A stretch of 64,000 nt of DNA, taken from assembly GCF_963921235.1 (NCBI RefSeq), contig NC_086097.1, positions 94,986,001-95,050,000 on the forward strand, in the 5' to 3' direction. The notes below the pieces were generated by a model. The model saw only the letters and a program-made list of their open reading frames with translations, did not search any database and had not been told where the DNA came from. Positions 5,990 to 54,628 of the stretch are shown here, one piece after another (positions within the stretch are counted from its first letter, which is position 1; each line of letters starts with the position of its first letter). This DNA is from Mobula hypostoma (lineage: Eukaryota). The position numbers and the translations under genes were made by a program.

Positions 5990-6516
5990 TACAATTGCAC
6001 CCTTGATACATCAGCAAGATAAATTGCGAGAAGAATGGATATTAGGCAACATTCCAAAAACGAAAGCACAAAGTTAAGGATTCAGATGTTGAAGACCCTC
6101 AGTCATATGTTTTCCACTGTAACTGGTCGAAGTATGTGTGTCCATGGACAATTGTTAGAAAACAAGTCAGGGGAGCTGGCTAAGAAGCTGGATTATGAAG
6201 ATTTTAAAGCAACAGATGGTTGGCTGTCTCAATGGAAATGCAGGCACTACATTAAATTCAAGGAAGCACACAGTGAGAAAGGTAGCATTGATGCTATAAG
6301 TGTAGAAACATAGAAACCTACAAAACTTCCTGACTTGCTTCAAAAGTGTTGTGCAAACGATATCTACGATGCTGATGAAACAAGCCTTTTTTTATCATGC
6401 CACGTTGGACATCCAACATTATCAGGTTCAAAGAAAGCAATGGATTGCATAACTGTGCTGTGTTGTTCAAATATGTCAGGAGCTGATTGTCAGTTATTAG
6501 GAAAAGCTTGATGCCA
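5990..6516 (+). mobile_element. Tigger/pogo transposase remnant, 5' part (CENP-B HTH and first DDE motif)
   Basis: ORF 6035-6313 ELAKKLDYEDFKATDGWLSQWKCRH, then DIYDADETSLF and ITVLCCSNMSG; interrupted by the CR1 at 6511. Confidence 0.8.
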
Positions 6517-7446
6517 GGCAGGATGTTAGAATGCTCCTCTTGCAGGATGTAGGAAGTCAGGGAGCCCTCCGGTGTCCCTGACAACGACACCTGCAAGAAG
6601 TGCATCCAGCTGCAGCTCCTGACAAACCGCGTTAGGGAACTGGAGCAGGAGCTGGATGACCTGCGGATCATTCGGGAGAATAAGGAGATTATAGATAGTA
6701 GCTACAGGGAGGTAGTTACGCCAAAGGAGCAGAGGACAGGAAATTGGGTCACTGTCAGGCGAGGGAAGAGGAAAGGGCAGGCAGAGCAGGGTTCCCCTGT
6801 GGCCATTCACCTCAACAACAAGTATACCGCATTGGATACTGTTGGGGGGGATGACTTACCTGGGACAAGCTGCAGTAGCCGGATGTCTGGCACTGAGTCT
6901 GGCTCTGCAGTGCAGAAGGGAGGGGGGAGAAAGAGGAGAGCGGTAGTGATAGGGGACTCGATAGTTAGAGGTGCAGATAGAAGGTTCTGTGGTCGTGACA
7001 GAGAATCCAGGATGGTTTGTTACCTCCCAGGTGCCAGGGTCAAGAATGTCTCTGATCGATTGCATGACATTCTGAAGTGAGAGGGTGACCAGCCAGATGT
7101 CGTGGTGCACATCGGTACCAATGACATAGCAAGGAAGGGTGAAGAGGTCCTGGACAGTGAGTATAGAGAGCTTGGTAGGAAGTTGAAAAGCAGGACCTCA
7201 AGGGTGGTAGTCTCAGGATTGCTACCTGTGCTAGGTGCCAGTGAGGGTAGGAATAGGATGCTCTGGAGGAGGAACAAGTGGCTGAGGAACTGGTGTAGGG
7301 GGCAGGGTTTCAGATTTCAGGATCATTGGGACCTCTTCTGGGGCAGGTGGGACCTGTACAAGAGAGATGGGTTACACTTGAACCACAGGGGGACCAATAT
7401 CCTTTCAGGGAGGTTTGTTAGTGCTATTGGGGAGGCTTTAAACTAG
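6511..7446 (+). pseudogene. CR1 ORF1 (zinc finger/leucine zipper plus SGNH esterase), two premature stops
   Basis: ATG 6511 MPGRMLECSSC...TCKKC, LTNRVRELEQELDDL, VIGDSIVR, VHIGTND, DGLHLN; stops at 6550 and 7078; natural TAG at 7444-7446. Confidence 0.9.
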
Positions 7447-10378
7447 ATTTGCAGGGGGATGGGAACCAGAGTGCTAGAGCTGACAGTGTGGGTGGGGTGA
7501 AAATAAATGATATTGAAAGTTTAAGCAAATCCGCTGATAGAAAGGTTGTGAGTGGTGGTAAAAATCTTCTGAGGTGTATATATTTCATTGCTAGGAGTAT
7601 TGCAGGGAAGGCGGATGAGTTGAGGGCGTGGATTGACACGTGGAGTTATGATGTTGTAGCAATTAGTGAAACTTAGCTACAGGAGGGGCAGGACTGGCAG
7701 CTTAATATTCCAGGGTTCCGATGTTTCAGATGTGATCGAGGCAGAGGAATGAAAGGTGGGGGAGTAGCATTGCTTGTTAGGGAAAATATTACAGCAGTGC
7801 TCAGGCAGGACAGATTAGAGGGCTTGTCTACTGAGTCCTTATGGGTGGAGCTGAGAAACAGGAAAGGTATGGCCACATTAGTGGGATTGTATTACAGACC
7901 ACCCAATAGTCAACGAGACTTGGAAGAGCAAATCTGCAGAGAGATAGCAGGCAACTGCAGGAAACATAAAGTTGTGGTGGTAGGGGATTTTAATTTTCCA
8001 TACATTGATTGGGACTCCCATACTGTTAGGGGTCTAGATGGTTTAGAGTTTGTAAAATGTGTTCAGGAAAGTTTTCTAAATCAATATATAGAGGGACCAA
8101 CTAGAGGGGATGCAATATTGGATCTCCTGTTAGGTAACAAATTAGGGCAAGTGACAGAAGTCTGTGTAGGGGAGCACTTTGGTTCCAGGGATCATAACAC
8201 CATTAGTTTCAATTTGGTCATGGACAAGGATAGATCTGGTCCTAGGGTTGAGGTTCTGAACTGGAAGAAGGCCAAATTTGAAGAAATGAGAAAGGATCTA
8301 AAAAGCGTGGATTGGGACAGGTTGTTCTTTGGCAAAGATGTGATTGGTAGGTGGGAAGCCTTCAAAGGGTAAATTTTGAGAGTGCAGATTTTGTATGTTC
8401 CTGTCAGGATTAAAGGCAAATTGAATAGGAATAAGGAACCTTGGTTCTCAAGGGACATTGCAACTCTGATAAAGAAGAAGAGGGAGTTGTATGAAATGTA
8501 TAGGAAACAGGGGGTAAATCAGGTGCTTGAGGAGTATAAGAAGTGCAAGAAAATACTTAAGAAAGAAATCAGGAGGGCTAAAAGAAGACATGAGGTTGCC
8601 TTGGCAGTCAAAGTGAAGGATAATCCAAAGAGCTTTTACAAGTATATTAAGAGCACAAGGATTGTAAGGGATAAAATTGGTCCTCTTGAAGATCAGAGTG
8701 GTCGGCTTTGTGCGGAACCAAAGGAAATGGGGGAGATCTTAAATAGGTTTTTTGCGTCTGTATTTACTAAGGAAGCTGGCATGAAATCTATGGAATTGAG
8801 GGAATCAAGTAGTGAGACCATGGAAACTGTACAGATTGAAAAGGAGGAGGTGCTTGCTGTCTTGAGGAAAATTAAAGTGGATAAATCCCCGGGACCTGAT
8901 AGAGTGTTCCCTCGGACCTTGAAGGAGACTAGTGTTGAAATTGCGGGGGCCCTAGCAGAAATATTTAAAATGTCGCTGTCTACGGGTGAAGTACCGGAGG
9001 ATTGGAGAGTGGCTCATGTTGTTCCGTTGTTTAAAAAAGGATCGAAAAGTAATCCGGGAAATTATAGGCCGGTGAGTTTAACGTCAGTAGTAGATAAGTT
9101 ATTGGAGGGAGTACTAAGAGACAGAATCTACAAGCATTTGGATAGACAGGGGCATATTAGGGAGAGTCAACATGGCTTTGTGCGTGGTAGGTCATGTTTG
9201 ACCAATCTGTTGGAGTTTTTCGAGGAGGTTACCAGGAAAGTGGATGAAGGGAAGGCAGTGGATATTGTCTACATGGACTTCAGTAAGGCCTTTGACAAGG
9301 TCCCCGCATGGGAGCTTAGTTAGGAAAATTCAGTCGCTAGGTATACATGGAGAGGTGGTAAATTGGATTAGACATTGGCTCGATGGAAGAAGCCAGAGAG
9401 TGGTGGTAGAGAATTGCTTCTCTGAGTGGAGGCCTGTGACTAGTGGTGTGCCACAGGGATCAGTGCAGGGTCCATTGTTATTTGTCATCTATATCAATGA
9501 TCTGGATGATAATGTGGTAAATTGGATCAGCAAATTTGCTGATGATACAAAGATTGGAGGTGTAGTAGACAGTGAGGAAGGTTTTCAGAGCCTGCAGAGG
9601 GACTTGGACCAGCTGGAAAAATGGGCTGAAAAATGGCAGATGGAGTTTAATACTGCCAAGTGTGAGGTATTGCACGTTGGAAGGACAAACCAACGTAGAA
9701 CATACAGGGTTAATGGTAAGGCACTGAGGAGTGCAGTGGAACAGAGGGATCTGGGAATACAGATACAAAGTTCCCTAAAAGTGTCGTCACAGGTAGATAG
9801 GGTCGTAAAGAGAGCTTTTGGTACATTGGCCTTTATTAATCGAGGTATTGAGTATAAGAGCTGGAATGTTATGATGAGGTTGTATAAGGCATTGGTGAGG
9901 CCAGATTTGGAGTATTGTGTTCAGTTTTGGTCACCAAATTACAGGAAGGATATAAATAAGGTTGAAAGAGTGCAGAGAAGGTTTGCAAGGATGTTGCCGG
10001 AACTTGAGAAACTCAGTTGCAGAGAAAGGTTGAATAGGTTGGGACTTTATTCCCTGGAGCATAGAAGAATGAGGGGAGATTTGATAGAGATATATAAAAT
10101 TATGATGGGTATAGATAGAGTGAATGCAAGCAGGCTTTTTCCACTGAGGCAAGGGGAGAAAAAAACCAGAGGACATGGGTTAAGGGTGAGGGAGGGAAAA
10201 GTTTAAAGGGAACATTAGTGGGGGCTTCTTCACACAGAGAGTGGTGGGAGTATGGAATGAGCTGCCAGACGAGGTGGTAAATGCGGGTTCTTTTTTAACA
10301 TTTAAGAATAAATTGGACAGATACATGGATGGGAGGTGTATGGAGGGATATGGTCTGTGTGCAGGTCAGTAAGACTAG
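7437..10378 (+). pseudogene. CR1 ORF2 (APE endonuclease plus RT), in the -1 frame relative to ORF1
   Basis: LRCIYFIARSI, ISET, GDFNFP, TRGDAILDL, RDH, GPD, QHGF, GVPQGS, KFADD; stops at 7674 and 8370, frameshifts near 9305 and 10195. Confidence 0.93.
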
Positions 10379-12211: not shown

Positions 12212-13176
<965 letters not shown>

Positions 13177-23999: not shown

Positions 24000-26760
24000 A
24001 AACATAGAATATACAGCGCTGGTCAGGCCATTTGGCCCAAAGTCCTCCTCATGCATATCATCCCTATCCCTCCAGTCTCTTCATATTTATATCAAAAACC
24101 CTCTGAAAGTCTACCAAACTGGCTGCTTCCACTGGTAACCTTGGTAACTCATTCCTGGAACCTACTACTCTGTGTTAAAAACTTGCCACTCACAACCCCC
24201 TTAAACTCTCCCCCCCCCCCGCCCCCAGCCCACCAACCTTAAAAGCATGCTCTGGTGTTTGACATTCCCAACCTGGGGAAAAGACACTGGAGCAGAATTA
24301 AGCCATTCGGCCCATCAAGTCTGCTCCATCATGGCAGATTTATTATCCTTTTTAACACCATTCTACTGCTTTCTCCCTATAACCTTTGTTTCCCTGACTA
24401 ATCAAGAACCTATCAACCTTTGCTTTAAACTTTTCTAATGGCTTGGTCTTCACAGCTGTCTGTGGCAATGAATTCCATAGATTCACCACCCTCTGGCTAA
24501 AGAAATTCTTCCTCATGTCTATTCTAAATGGACATCCCTCTACTTTGAGGCTCTAGCCTTTGATTCTAGACTCACTCATTTTTGGCAAGCGGGCATATGC
24601 AGCCTCAGCCCAATCTCTATCCAGCTAACAGGAAGCACTTACCACTCATTTCCATATTATTACCTGAAGCCTAATTAAACCCAGCCCTCACACTGATCGG
24701 AAATGTAGAGAAGGCTTGACCCAAAAGCAGAGTAGCTGAGATGACTCAGCAGCAAGCAGTACTGTTAATAATTAACTGTAAAATAACAAGCCACGAGGGC
24801 TGCAGAAACAAGAGAGAACAGATCCTACAGTCACAGGTAACAAGTTAACTGAAGGCTAGGAGCAACTGGTTGAGGCTGGCTGGTTCAAATGAGTGAACAA
24901 AGATTGTGGATAAGAGCTAGGTTCAAATAGGCTTCAGGTGATGAGTGGCAAGTGACTCCTGTTAACTTGATAAAGGCTAGGAGGAACCTGTATGTGCAGG
25001 CCTGACAACTCCATCCAGGTGTTTCAATATTCAAAAGGTTTCAATGAGAGCCCCACCCCCCCCCATTCTTCTAAACTCCAGTGAGTACTGCCCAGAGCCT
25101 TAAACTCTTCTCATACATGAACCCTTTCATTCCCAGAATCATTTTTGTGAACCACCACTGGACCAACTCCAATGCCAGAACATCCTTTCTTAGATAAAGA
25201 GCCCAAAACTGTTCACAATATTCCAACTGCGGTTCACCAATACATTATAAAGCATCAGCATCACATCCCTACTCTTATATTCTAGTCCTTTCGAAATGAA
25301 TGGTAACATTGCAGTTGCCTTCCTTACCACCAACTCAACCTGCATATTAACTTTCAGGTAATCCTGCATGAGGATTTCTAAATCCCTTTTCACCTCTGAT
25401 TTTTACCTTTTCTCACCATTTAGAAAATAGTCTATGCTGTTATTCCTTCTACCAAAGTGCATGATCATACACTTCTCTAGATTATATTCCCTCTGCTACT
25501 TCTTTGCCCATTCTCCCAATCTGGCTAAGTCCTTCTCAACACTCCCTGCTTCCTCAACACTAACTATTCCTCCATTTAACTTTGTATCATCTGCAAACTT
25601 GGCCACTAAGTCTTCAATTCCATAATTAAACCTGTGGACCTACTATTTGAAAAGAAGTGGACACAATACCAATTGCTGTGGAACGCGGCCAACTAGAATG
25701 GGCTTCCTTTATTCTCACTCTGCCTCCTGCCAGTTAGCCAATCTTCTATCCTGCTAGTATCTTTCCTGTAATACCATGGGCTCTTATCTTGTTAAGCAGC
25801 ATCATCGGTGGCACTTTGTCAAAGATCTTCTGAAAATCCAAGTAAACAACATCTATTGACTCTCCTTTGTCTACCCTGCCTGTTATTTCCTCAAAGAATC
25901 CCAACATATATGTCAGGCAAGATGTTCCTTTAAGGAAACCATGCTGATTTTGACCTACTTTATCAGGTCTCTCCAAGTACCCTGAAACATCATCCTCGAT
26001 AATGGACTCCAACATCTTCCTAACCACTGACATTGGGCTAATGAGGCTATAATTTCCTTCCTTCTGCCTCCCTCCCTTCTGAACTGCAATTTTGCCCTAT
26101 TATCTGCTTGTCCATCCTCATAGTCTTACCACACAATGCATTGACTTTTATACCAACTGCCCCATCCTCAGCCCCTTCACTCAAGTTCTCATTCCCCTGC
26201 CAAATTAGTTTAAACCTTTCCCAACAGCTCTAGCAAACCTGCCGGCAAGGATATTGGCCCCCCTTGGGTTCAGATGTAATTTGTTCTTTCTGTACAGATC
26301 ATACCTTCCCCAGAAGAGATCCCAATGATCCAGAAATCTGAAACCTTTCCCCCTACCACTCCCTCAGGCATTCATTCATCTGTATTATCATCCTATTCCT
26401 GCCTTGAGTAGCATGTAGGATGGGTGTAATCCAAGGACTATTAACTTGGAGGTCCTTCTCTTCAGCCTCTTTGCTAACTCCCTACACTCACTGCGCAGGA
26501 TCTCTTCCCCCTTTCTACCTATGTCATTAGCTTGAAAGTGCCCCACAACCTCTGGCTGCTCACCCTCCTTCTTGAGAATCTTCTGCAGCAACTCTGGGTC
26601 ATCCTGGATCCTAGCACCTGTGAGGCAACACACCATCCTGGTATCTCTTTCACAGCCACAGAATCTTTTGTCCATCCCCCTAACTATCGAGTCTCCTAAC
26701 ACTATTGCTCTGCGTAATGTTACCCTTCCCTGCTGAGCCTCAGAGGCAGTCACAGCTCTC
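24000..26760 (-). mobile_element. CR1 cluster: 3' tails plus an internally deleted copy retaining ORF1 esterase and RT
   Basis: ORF 26388-26765 IVLGDSIVRG; 25746-26033 QHGFLKG; 25190-25393; the APE domain is missing between ~26080 and ~26100. Confidence 0.85.
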
Positions 26761-41039: not shown

Positions 41040-44000
41040 AAAGCCCATTATTTTCGTTCCCTTCTTTATATCTGCTCAGAGATGTGGGAAAGCAGAGATA
41101 CCCTGTGTCCCTGATGACTACAACAGCAAGAAGTAATTCCAGCTGCAGCTCCTAACAAACCATGTTAAGGAGCTGGAGCTGGAACTGGATGAACTCTGGA
41201 TCATTCGGAAGGTTGAGGGGGTGATACATAGGACATACAGAGAGGTTGTTACACCCAAGATGCAGGACACAGGAAACTAGGTAACAGTCAGGAAGGGGAA
41301 AGAGGTTAAGGAGCCAGTGCAGAGTACTCCTGTGACTGCTGCTACTATTACTACTACGTCGACTCAGGCCTAGGGGGCCGGCGTTGGGCACGATGACGGA
41401 CTCTCCACTTCTCCCTCTCTCTCATCAGTGTGTTCAGTTCATCTACATTAACCACGCTGCTGTCTTCTAGGAGCGTGTTGACCATAGTCTTAGGAGGGCG
41501 CCCAGGGTTCATCCTCCCGTGCTTGGGCTCTCATATGATGACTAGGCTGGCAGGTAGCTCGGGGTGGCGTAGAAAGTGCCCCGCTAGTTGCAGTCTTCTC
41601 GTCTCGATTTTAGTGGTGAGCATCGGTAGGTCGTCATAGGGCTCGACGTTCGTCATGTGCTGTTGCCAACTCGCGTCAAGAGCCATCCGGAGCATTCGTG
41701 TACAGCAACCATCTAGAGACTTTCGCATCGTCTTGGTGAGTGTCCACGTCTCGCATCCGTATGTGAGAATGGACTCTATGACTGCTATGAAGATCCTCTT
41801 TTTAAGCCCTCTGATCAGGTTTGACTTCCAGATTTCCTTCATGTTGTTTCTTAGCCCTTCACGCCAGTGCCTTCTGTATTTTTATGTCCTTCTCCGGACT
41901 CATCATTCTTGACCCGAGGTACTTGAAGTCAAAGACTTTCTTAATAGTATCATTCTTTACGGTCTTGAGAGTACCTTCGTCGCAGTTAAACGCCATGTAC
42001 TCTGTCTTTTTAGCATTTAGGTGAAGTCCAACTTTATTGCACTCAGTTTCCACTTTTGTCAGTAGCTGCTGTGCTTCCTCCATCTGGTCAGAGAGCAGAA
42101 CTATGTTATCTGCATAATCGGGATCTGTGAGTATAACTGGTCTGAGCCTTTTGGTTCGTCCTGGTTTTATGGTAAAACCGAACTCCTTTGGCCATCCCTC
42201 TCAACAACAGGTATGTCACTTTAGATACTCACGGTGGGGTGGATGACCTAACCAGAGGAAAGTTGTAGTGGGTGAGTCTTTGGCACTGAGTCTGCCTCTG
42301 TAACTCAGAAGGGGAAGTGGAGGAGAAGAGGCACACTGTGGCGATAGGAGATTCATAGTTAGGGGAATGAACAGGAGGTTCTGTGAGCGAGAATGAGATT
42401 CCCGAATGATAGGTTGCCTCTCGGGTGCCAGAATCGGGATATCTCGGATCGAGTCCTCAGCATTCTTAAGTGGGAGGGTGAACAGCCAGAAGTCATGGTC
42501 CATGTCGGTACCAGTGACATGGGTAGGATGAGTGACGAGGTTCTGCATAGGGAGTTCAGGGAATTAAGGTGCTAAGTTAAAGGGCAGAACCTCCAGGGTT
42601 GTGATCTCAGGATCTCTACCTGTGCCACGTGCTACTAAGGCCAGAACTAGGAAGATTATACAGTTTAATATGTGGCTCGGAGGGAGGGCATAAGGTTTTT
42701 GGATCCTTGGGCTCCCTTTCAGGGAAGGTGGAACCTATACAGAAGGGAAAGCTTGCACCCGAATTGGAGGGAGACTAATATCCTAGCGGGAAGGTTTGTT
42801 AATGCTGCACAGTGGGGTTTAAACTAAAGTTGCAGGGGGATGGGAACCAGACTGCCAGAACAGTTAGTGGAGAGGTTGTGGAGGCAGATGTTGGTAAGAC
42901 CTCAGACAAAGTCAGGAATCAAAAGGTGAGTGTGGTACGACTAGTGTCCTGAACTGCATATATTTCAATGCAGCAAGTATCATAGGAAAGGCAGATAATA
43001 GTGCTGACGATGACGTAGCTGCTTTGCAAACAGAGGCAATGTGTAGTGAGGAGAGGCTGTTGACAGGGCAAAATTGCAGTCAACAGGATGACTTGCAATG
43101 TAAAGGCAGACAAGATCGAAAAGGGTGAATACAGGGTGTTGTATCTGAAACCGCGCAGTACACGGAATAAGGTAGATGGACTTGCAGCACAGTCGCAGAT
43201 TGGCAGGTATGATGTTGTAGGCATCACTGAATCATGGCTAAAACAAGATCTTAATGTCCAGGGATACAAATTGTATCAAAAGGGCAGGCAGGAAGGCAGA
43301 GGGGCTTTGCTCTGTTGGTTTAAAAAAAATAAAATCTTTAGAAAGAGGTGACATAGGGTCAGAAGGTGTTGAATCGTTGTGGATAGAGCTAAGGAACTAC
43401 AAGGGTAAAAAGACCCTGATGGGAATTGTATACAGACCCCAAACAGTAGTAAGGATGTGGCCTACAAATTACAATGGGAAATAGAAAATACATGCCAAAA
43501 GGGCAATGTTACGATAGTCACAGGGGACTTCAATATGCAGGTAGATTGGGAAAATCTGGTTGGTGCTGGATTACAGAGGGGGAGTTTCTGGACTGCCTAT
43601 GAGATGGTTTTTTACAGCAGCTCATGGTTGAGCCCACTAGAGGATCAGCTATTCTGGATTGGGTGTTGAACCAGAATTCATTAGAGAGAAAAAAGATAAA
43701 AGAACCCTTTGGGGCAAGTGATCATAATATGATCAAATTCACCCTAAAATGTGAGGAGAAAGTCAGATGTATCAGTATTACAGTGGAGTAAAGGGAATTA
43801 CAGAGGAGTTGGCCAGAATTGATTGGAAAAGAACACTGGCAATGATGACAGCAGAGCAGCAATGGCTGAAATTTCTGGAAGTAATTTGGAAAGCACGGGA
43901 TATATACATCCCAAAGAGGAAGAAGTATTCTAAAGGAAAGATGACACAACCATGGCTAACAAGAGAAGTCAAAGCCATTATAAGAGCCAAAGGAGGGTAT

Positions 44001-54000: not shown

Positions 54001-54628
54001 ACATTGCAACTCATCTTTTTGACTGCAATTTTACCCTACCATCAGCCTCTCCTTGCTAGCAATCTTACAATACACTGCCTCTGCTTGTAAACCAACTACC
54101 CCATCCTCAGCTCTATCACCGCACTTCCCATCCCCCACCAAATTACAAACGTAGTTTAAACCCTCCTGAACAGCTCCAGCAAACCTGTCCACAAGGATAT
54201 TGGTCCCACTCAGATTCAGGTGTAACCTATCCCTTTTTTACAGGTTACACCTTCCCCAGAAGAGATCCTAAAATCTGAACCCCTGCCCCCTGCACCAGTT
54301 CCTCAGCCACACGTTCATCTGCCAAGTCATCCTATTCTTACCCTCAATGGCACTCGGCACAGGCAGCGATCCAGAGATTACTACCCTGGCAGTCCTGCTT
54401 TTCAGCTTTCTACCTAGATCCCTAAAATCTCTCTTCAGGACCTCCTCACCTTTCCTACCTATGCCACTGGTGCCAATATGTACCAAGACTTCTGGCTGCT
54501 CCTCCTCCTCCTTTAGAATGTCATGGACCCGATCCAAGACATCCCTGATTCTGGCGCCTAGGAGGCAACATGTCACCAGTGTGTCTCTATCATGTCCACA
54601 AAATCTAACCTCTGTTCCTCTAACTATG
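51012..54628 (-). mobile_element. Long decayed CR1 (partial ORF1, APE, RT, tail)
   Basis: ORFs 54268-54576 (VLVHIGT), 53495-53776 (GDFN), 52146-52571 (KSPGP, NYRPVSLTS), 51543-51749. Confidence 0.93.
52907..53128 (+). mobile_element. Non-autonomous bipartite RTE-type retroposon (5'UTR-like head and (CAA)n tail)
   Basis: TGTCGTGTGGAGGCTTG..CAGGGCCGCCCA..CCAGACGAAGA resembles recalled RTE/BovB 5' motifs; TSD ACCGGCTTTTAT/ACTGGTTTTTAT. Confidence 0.7.

Follow-up and report, generated by a model that had tools for sequence, protein, structure and literature searches.

A probable -1 ribosomal frameshift site, conserved at the ORF1/ORF2 junction of CR1 retrotransposons in Mobula hypostoma and other vertebrates

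This paper concerns a CR1-type long interspersed nuclear element (LINE) on contig NC_086097.1 of the Mobula hypostoma genome (assembly GCF_963921235.1). It lies in a stretch of 64,000 nucleotides (nt), positions 94,986,001 to 95,050,000 of the contig, which is called the window below and is numbered from its first letter. The element extends on the plus strand from 6511 to about 10206 and contains two open reading frames (ORFs), ORF1 and ORF2. ORF1 (6511-7446), which begins with MPGRMLECSSCRM, codes for a zinc-finger-like N-terminus, a coiled coil and an SGNH/GDSL esterase domain, as judged from its translation, from the Pfam domain Lipase_GDSL_2 matched in a sister copy, and from homologues. 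The 3' end of ORF1 reads GCT TTA AAC TAG. The letters T_TTA_AAC (7437-7443), recognized both in the sequence and by comparison of copies, form a slippery heptamer in the phase of ORF1, and the TAG stop codon (7444-7446) directly adjoins it. A spacer of 10 nt (7444-7453), fixed in length and poorly conserved in sequence, separates the heptamer from a bipartite G-run element, GGGGG-AT-GGG (7454-7463), with runs at 7454-7458 and 7461-7463, which is the candidate stimulator of a frameshift. Heptamer, stop, G-runs and the motif AACCAGAGTG form a conservation island (7435-7474, plus strand like all of these features) that is common to diverged CR1 families.

ORF2 lies in the -1 frame. In the window copy, this frame is closed by a TAG (7419-7421) five codons upstream of the heptamer and is then open from 7422 to 7673, reading TTT AAA CTA GAT TTG CAG GGG at the junction. 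The segment 7422-7676 on the plus strand comprises the overlap with ORF1, a linker and the first endonuclease motifs, and ends at a premature TAG (7674-7676). The remainder of ORF2 (7677-10206, same strand), which codes for endonuclease and reverse transcriptase, is split over several frames, as seen from the list of ORFs and from the Pfam matches of a sister copy. In open sister copies, ORF2 continues for at least 588 codons into the Pfam domains Exo_endo_phos and RVT_1. Numbered along the -1-frame ORF of such a copy, residue 49 is the start of Exo_endo_phos and residue 105 the first methionine. Since the domain starts before the first methionine, initiation at an AUG would remove the front of the endonuclease domain. 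The first ATG in the ORF2 frame of the window copy is at 7749, with none earlier, and an ATG at 7459 belongs to the ORF1 (0) frame. The original prediction, made from the letters of this copy alone, had described a heptamer in phase next to the stop, an ORF2 in the -1 frame with its first ATG at 7749, after the N-terminal endonuclease motifs, and the ATG at 7459 out of frame, and a G-rich motif about 7 nt downstream. All of this was borne out, the G-rich motif being GCAGGGGGATGGGAAC, which begins at 7451, 7 nt past the heptamer.

The element is assigned to the CR1 clade on the basis of its domain content and of named homologues, and the choice of CR1 over an L2-like branch is based on these similarities. 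The zebrafish ZfL2-1 esterase (PDB 4c1b) matches ORF1, in an alignment that ends short of the C-terminus of 4c1b.

The family of the window copy is young, although the window copy itself is dead, with ORF1 stops at 6550-6552 (TAG) and 7078-7080 (TGA), the ORF2 stop at 7674-7676 and later frame breaks. All three premature stops stand where sisters and relatives have tryptophan (TGG changed to TAG or TGA), and position 7675 is a G in nearly all contigs of public sequencing runs. A search of the 3.48-Gb assembly with a 401-base query across the junction returned more than 3,000 first-look candidates, and 39 other scored places were 98% identical to the query. Junction and heptamer were kept in 29 of 29 other near-identical loci that were fetched, a count to which the identity of 98% gives little weight. 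In full-length sister copies the alignment to the window copy starts at 6511, and truncation at the 5' end within ORF1, as is usual for LINEs, was found in 21 of 30 loci (window copy included). ORF1 is open in none of these 30 young copies; a shared ORF1 defect was considered and rejected, as 21 of them are truncated. In four public runs, the contigs showed neither insertions nor deletions at the junction, and slippage at the level of DNA or RNA is therefore not indicated. These runs are assembled contigs, three of them only guessed to derive from RNA, and have no bearing on expression; one contig from a run recorded as an RNA library covers 7288-7458, which is not a demonstration of transcription. 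Contigs from other families in the four runs match only the stretch between about 7437 and 7478, with loose ends.

The window holds three further CR1 junctions, from families designated A, B and C, whose ORF1 is 64%, 52% and 39% identical, respectively, to that of the window copy. The family C junction (42818-42839, plus strand, with 10 genome copies) reads GGT TTA AAC TAA, followed by the spacer and GGGGG. That of family B is located at 26193-26214 on the minus strand (10 genome copies), and the heptamer of family A at 54154-54160, also on the minus strand, in a copy whose stop is mutated to TAC and whose spacer carries an insertion. For family A, 30 genome loci (29 further ones and the copy in the window) were aligned with MAFFT, and most of them read GGT TTA AAC TAA. 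In the window, each of the three families has GGTTTAAACTA plus a G-rich motif. The majority junction of all four families of this genome is NNT TTA AAC TAR, with GGGGGATGGG / GGGGGATGGGAAC at 10 nt from the heptamer end and ORF2 in the -1 frame. Counted per 15 alignment columns, those identical in the four families number 3 just upstream, 11 and 14 in the island, and then 7, 4 and 2. Nucleotides are thus conserved in an island at the junction, with a poorly conserved flank on either side. In the junctions of families A, B and C (GGTTTAAAC), the letters GTTTAAAC are their own reverse complement, and motif searches match both strands one base apart.

One alternative to a functional signal is chance, namely an A/T-rich heptamer that happens to stand at the ORF1 end of one decayed copy. 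TTTAAAC occurs eight times on the plus strand and 14 times on the minus strand of the window, and the window copy is a pseudogene. However, the pattern TTTAAACTAR-N7-GGGGG (at most two mismatches) is found three times in the window, where 0.37 matches would be expected, and none of 100 shuffles reached three. Conservation across lineages is stronger evidence than this count: heptamer, phase, stop and G-runs recur in the four families and in 12 clusters of amniote-type loci, described next. The comparative data already refute a chance origin, which retains a negligible probability.

For other vertebrates, a set of loci was obtained independently of the motif by scanning metagenome contigs with an ORF1 alignment and with an esterase-domain peptide pattern (CCLPGA...). 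The 45 loci found (numbers with L below) are host-derived CR1 copies, their ORF1 type matching that of named avian CR1 and turtle CR1 proteins. TTTAAAC stands at the end of ORF1 in 16 of the 17 amniote-type loci that hold this end; the sole exception, L092, is a decayed copy, and its cluster-mate L108 has TTTAAAC. When the last 200 nt of ORF1 are clustered at 80% nucleotide identity, the amniote-type loci form the 12 clusters, and many pairs are only 40-60% identical. This clustering was confined to amniote-type rows; the rows for four loci of the M. hypostoma genome were set aside because of the strand ambiguity caused by the palindromic letters mentioned above.

The junctions of 22 copies, eight from the families of this genome and 14 amniote-type loci, were tabulated and represent 16 lineages. 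NNT TTA AAC is present in 22 of 22. The codon before TTA always ends in T, though it may be GCT, GGT, TGT, TCT or ACT (for A, G, C, S or T). A stop in the 0 frame (TAG, TAA or TGA) directly follows the heptamer in 19 of the 22, the other three being decayed copies, and an AUG in the -1-frame overlap upstream was found in none. In the background codon use of ORF1, TTA makes up 10% of the leucine codons and AAC 41% of the asparagine codons, while GGT and GCT stand at 19% and 22%. The choice of codons at the junction is therefore not that of the background. The constraint acts on the nucleotides and not on the residues. In all cases in which ORF2 could be traced as far as the endonuclease domain, it was in the -1 frame, and the offset between ORF1 and ORF2 did not vary. 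A variable offset had been named in the original prediction as an observation that would speak against it, and was not seen; similar junctions in other vertebrate CR1s, which it had considered possible, occur in the amniote-type loci. In other collections, the search for extra ORF1 loci gave one short fragment among genome contigs and none among viral contigs.

On the protein level, ORF1 homologues ending in Leu-Asn made up 70 of 102, 79 of 115 and 8 of 26 sequences in three protein searches (157 in total), and most of the homologues without this end are truncated, fused or decayed gene models. The named ORF1 homologues come mostly from sharks, rays and skates, with turtle and bird ones as well. 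A Leu-Asn end was identified for sawshark, stingrays, skate, zebra shark, frog, turtles, sturgeon, a deep-sea eel and many birds. When 20 sequences, 27-59% identical to the first of them, were aligned, L and N at the end did not vary, and neither did the catalytic GDS and DGLH positions. The residue before them varies among at least 12 identities (G, A, S, T, D, Y, C, H, I, V, F, rarely E). Residues that lack a U-ending codon (K, Q, E, M, W) occupy this position in 2 of 157 proteins, compared to 35 of 70 one residue earlier. Esterase-type proteins that are more distant (P0230-P0243) extend past this point and have no Leu-Asn end, which implies that the esterase fold has no need for it.

Some database entries are recorded here as observations on the ORF1 proteins. 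The stingray gene model P0012 runs ...ASREG-FKLNLQGAG... on to ...YLNARS...ITETWL and resembles an ORF1-ORF2 fusion made by a -1 shift. It is a prediction only, presumably from a copy with an insertion or deletion or with a corrected frame, and is no evidence of a natural product. P0019, named 'SGNH/GDSL hydrolase family protein [Pseudomonas aeruginosa]' and located on a contig of 4.2 kb, shares 66% identity with the window-type ORF1 and ends in ...REGLN; a vertebrate contaminant of a bacterial assembly is its probable source. CR1 ORF1 is also contained in NCBI models named for host genes, namely ribosomal protein S24 (Pristis), TMEM204 (Mobula) and cadherin-18 (Aix).

The element downstream of the heptamer is held in position as well. 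In 19 of the 22 tabulated copies, 10 nt separate the heptamer from the first run of at least four G; in the others the distance is 9, 11 or 17 nt. In 15 of 17 sequences, from this genome and from bird and turtle types, the first G-run starts 10-12 nt past the heptamer and the second, of 3-5 G, at 17-19 nt. The first run consists of five or six G in most copies and of four in a few decayed ones. The -1-frame peptide over the runs is QGDGN in the families of this genome, KGEGD or KGGGG in bird-type loci, and LGVRV or SGGRV in two turtle-type loci. The G-runs are conserved as RNA and not as peptide.

Between the two runs lies the ATG at 7459, which has a good context (GGGGGATGG), stands in the ORF1 frame 12 nt past the ORF1 stop and opens an ORF of 13 codons in the window family. 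Because of this location between both G-runs, an ORF1-frame ATG is kept in all four families of the genome. In bird-type lineages a nearby ATG, if present, is in the ORF2 frame instead.

The most probable reading of these data is that the CR1 ORF1/ORF2 junction is a conserved site of -1 programmed ribosomal frameshifting that would give an ORF1-ORF2 fusion and use an unusual stimulator. A frameshift is favoured because the canonical heptamer is in phase, because synonymous sites are conserved in 16 lineages, because the -1 offset is constant, and because the downstream element is locked in position. The layout and its conservation are observed directly; from them we infer slippage, fusion and a role of the G-runs. 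On U_UUA_AAC, ribosomes translating ORF1 would hold UUA in their P site and AAC in their A site, and a fraction of them would slip back by one base, with the tRNAs re-pairing on UUU and AAA. The slipped ribosomes would then read CUA in place of the stop and continue into ORF2, to produce a fusion of the ORF1 protein (ORF1p), the linker, the endonuclease and the reverse transcriptase. All others would terminate at the adjacent stop and release free ORF1p, in a ratio like that of Gag to Gag-Pol. The stimulator would most likely be the pair of G-runs, 10 nt past the heptamer and without a Watson-Crick partner, acting either as a bound obstacle, occupied by a host G-run-binding protein or by a protein of the element itself, or as a G-quadruplex. 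A passage of a review of recoding (PMC5009743) counts U_UUA_AAC among the heptamers on which mammalian ribosomes shift most. The transframe protein with a G-rich stimulator that had been proposed for the window copy is thus supported by comparative conservation at the level of sequence, but is not proven.

Several points weigh against the frameshift; they concern the independence of the copies, the start codons of ORF2, the stop at the junction and the nature of the stimulator. Copies within a family share descent, so that the independent lineages are fewer than the loci. The original prediction had described ORF2 as lacking an AUG, and this holds for the window family and for family C, in which no AUG precedes the endonuclease domain. 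It does not hold for families A and B, where in-frame AUGs are present in the linker, nor for amniote-type lineages, where AUGs also precede the endonuclease domain and some of them lie within five codons of the heptamer. An in-frame AUG upstream of the endonuclease had been regarded beforehand as evidence against the frameshift. Such AUGs were found, yet they vary in position and presence, and the heptamer does not. The invariant stop beside the heptamer, finally, is not needed by a simple frameshift model.

These points lead to the main rival, a start of ORF2 coupled to termination. Here, a 40S subunit held near the ORF1 stop, perhaps by the G-rich element, would re-initiate in the -1 frame, at a nearby AUG in some lineages of the bird and turtle types or at a non-AUG codon in those of sharks, with ORF1p and the ORF2 protein (ORF2p) made separately. 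In its favour, the stop is found directly at the junction in nearly all tabulated copies, and the linker AUGs of families A and B could serve for re-initiation. The same applies to an ORF2-frame AUG located 3-5 codons past the heptamer in L082, L083, L089, L098 and L108, and to UAAUG in L112, which is the arrangement of SART1 as described in a part of PMC3708506. Near-cognate codons occur just past the stop in this genome, TTG in the window family and family C and ATT in families A and B, and for L1 a passage of PMC5009743 reports that translation of ORF2 is independent of an AUG. However, re-initiation gives no reason for a letter-exact N_NNT_TTA_AAC, in which the third bases of three successive codons are fixed in 16 lineages. 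A junction AUG is absent from the four families of this genome and from L084/L085/L095, L086/L099/L116, L090 and L106, and its position varies elsewhere. An ORF2-frame AUG next to the stop was present in only 6 of 15 amniote-type loci with sequence past the stop. In known re-initiation systems, the tethering motifs lie upstream of the stop, and the location of the conserved CR1 element downstream of it also counts against re-initiation. Termination-coupled re-initiation is considered unlikely, with roughly a one-in-five standing in our judgement, and both routes could coexist in some lineages.

As to the stimulator of the proposed frameshift, a conventional structure is not apparent. The usual spacer between heptamer and stimulator is 5-9 nt, and that of 10 nt here is longer. 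Watson-Crick folds of the sequence downstream of ten junctions gave z-scores from -1.24 to +1.21 relative to dinucleotide shuffles (RNAfold; minimum free energy folds, no pseudoknot program; one input, L069:140-229, mis-cut and beginning inside the G-run). No convincing pseudoknot could be folded for the original prediction, and likewise no convincing hairpin or pseudoknot was obtained for these ten junctions by this method. In the bird-type folds the G-runs are mostly unpaired. A G-quadruplex of two layers was placed by ViennaRNA in only 6 of 17 sequences, and in neither the window family nor family C; only about half of the sequences have a third G-run, at +45 to +52. In birds, a short stem 25-50 nt downstream (CCAGGC...GCCUGG or GGCUUG...CAAGCU) was noticed by eye and rejected, because the same 5' arm is used in different registers, which is not covariation. 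A minority class of distant, 'linear' stimulators, linked to trans-acting factors, is mentioned in the review by Atkins (PMC5009743).

The lack of an obvious structure of the frameshift type also speaks for a further alternative, in which the island would be conserved for another cis-acting signal in RNA or DNA (packaging, binding of ORF1p or reverse transcriptase, internal regulation) together with a functional Leu-Asn C-terminus, and ORF2 would be reached in some other way. The preservation of the G-runs as nucleotides and the invariance of Leu-Asn in the proteins would be in agreement with this. However, if the protein required Leu-Asn, this would account neither for the use of TTA, a rare codon, nor for the T in the third position of a variable preceding codon, and distant esterase-type proteins manage without this end. 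Moreover, the element is placed exactly where the frame has to change, and its letters are those of the best slippery heptamer of eukaryotes, correctly phased. Such a signal is improbable, clearly more so than re-initiation.

A -1 frameshift at the CR1 junction would have its closest formal counterparts in retroviral Gag-Pol and coronavirus ORF1a/1b, as far as these are treated in the part of PMC5009743 considered here. The heptamer is of the same X_XXY_YYZ type, that of infectious bronchitis virus (U_UUA_AAC) being identical to the one in CR1, and lies in the phase of the upstream gene. In each case the polymerase gene is in the -1 frame, and an abundant upstream protein would be expected together with a rarer fusion. 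In contrast to these systems, CR1 is a LINE without long terminal repeats (non-LTR), its ORF1 is of the esterase type and not a Gag, and the stop touches the heptamer. Furthermore, in place of a pseudoknot or stable hairpin, none of which was found, CR1 has two G-runs after a spacer of 10 nt. For the stop, a parallel exists in plant viruses: at luteovirus and dianthovirus frameshift sites the 0-frame stop is immediately 3' of the heptamer, as in CR1, and these sites rely on downstream structures and long-range pairing.

The nearest known analogue of the downstream element is the -2/-1 site in nsp2 of PRRSV, the virus that causes porcine reproductive and respiratory syndrome. According to passages of PMC4937337, this site has no obvious structure and uses a motif of two C-patches 11 nt downstream, with a wild-type spacer of 10 nt and an optimum of 9-11 nt; the motif acts by binding PCBP plus nsp1beta. 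CR1 shares with it a short linear motif, two homopolymer patches and the spacer of 10 nt. It differs in that its patches are G-rich and not C-rich, in that the heptamer is not G_GUU_UUU, and in that its candidate stimulator is defined by sequence, where that of PRRSV is bound by poly(C)-binding protein and a viral protein.

Among LINEs, TRE5-A and TRE3-A of Dictyostelium require a -1 frameshift for ORF2, as stated in a part of PMC5911963, and belong to another LINE clade and another host than CR1. SART1 of Bombyx, with its UAAUG, and human L1 are bicistronic like CR1, and expression of ORF2 is tied to events near the ORF1 stop (passages of PMC3708506 and PMC5009743); for SART1, a downstream RNA element matters (PMC3708506). 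However, in the same passages SART1 and L1 are described as giving separate ORF1 and ORF2 proteins, and no conserved slippery heptamer is described for them. Unlike SART1, the CR1 families of this genome have no AUG near the stop, and one turtle-type locus (L112) has the UAAUG. Expression of the polymerase by -1 frameshifting is thus already known in retroelements, and the CR1 case adds an atypical stimulator.

No description of frameshifting in CR1 was found in the literature searched, which did not include the primary accounts of Haas 1997, Kajikawa 1997 and Kapitonov & Jurka 2003, where an earlier remark is possible. By term search in the available part of the 2016 recoding review (PMC5009743), non-LTR elements are mentioned only for HeT-A, TART and L1. 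In a 2026 survey of CR1-group elements, the terms frameshift, overlap, slippery, stop codon and reinitiation are absent, and in Suh et al. 2014 and the paper on the ZfL2-1 esterase, the terms frameshift and overlap.

Two neighbouring features of the window are of other origin. Directly upstream of the CR1 5' end, at 6023-6510, ORF fragments (...DGWLSQWKCRHYIKF..., ...DADETSLF...) are present, which we take to resemble a transposase of the Tigger/pogo type; the CR1 copy seemingly lies in or beside a DNA transposon. At 12265-12949, ORF pieces of a Tc1/mariner-like transposase were seen in two frames (...LQQDNDPKHTSK...).

The translation of the second ORF in bicistronic LINEs is a long-standing open question, the mechanism being called 'not clear' in a passage of PMC3708506, and in CR1, the most widespread LINE clade of vertebrates, a canonical slippery heptamer preserved at synonymous sites between sharks and birds puts this question within direct reach of a test on a fragment of about 100 nt. 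A wider proposal, tentative and on balance doubtful in its full extent, is that all vertebrate CR1 LINEs with an esterase-type ORF1 might make an ORF1-ORF2 fusion by a -1 signal with an age of hundreds of millions of years, stimulated by the G-run pair through a bound protein (host or ORF1p) or a G-quadruplex, and not by an RNA helix. If a G-run element with a bound protein is correct, this would be the first widespread PRRSV-like, factor-dependent frameshift site in a cellular element, and with ORF1p as the binder, synthesis of ORF2 would be coupled to ORF1p in cis. The wider proposal, if true, would also answer directly by which route a major LINE clade translates ORF2. If frameshifting itself is correct, the known frameshift sites would gain a very abundant cellular class, the G-run element would join the non-helical stimulators as a new case, and NNT-TTA-AAC-stop could be used by annotators to set the ORF boundaries in CR1 copies. 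For the element, it would mean that CR1 makes a Gag-Pol-like fusion, which would set the ratio of ORF1p to ORF2p and tie the enzyme physically to the assembly of ORF1p.

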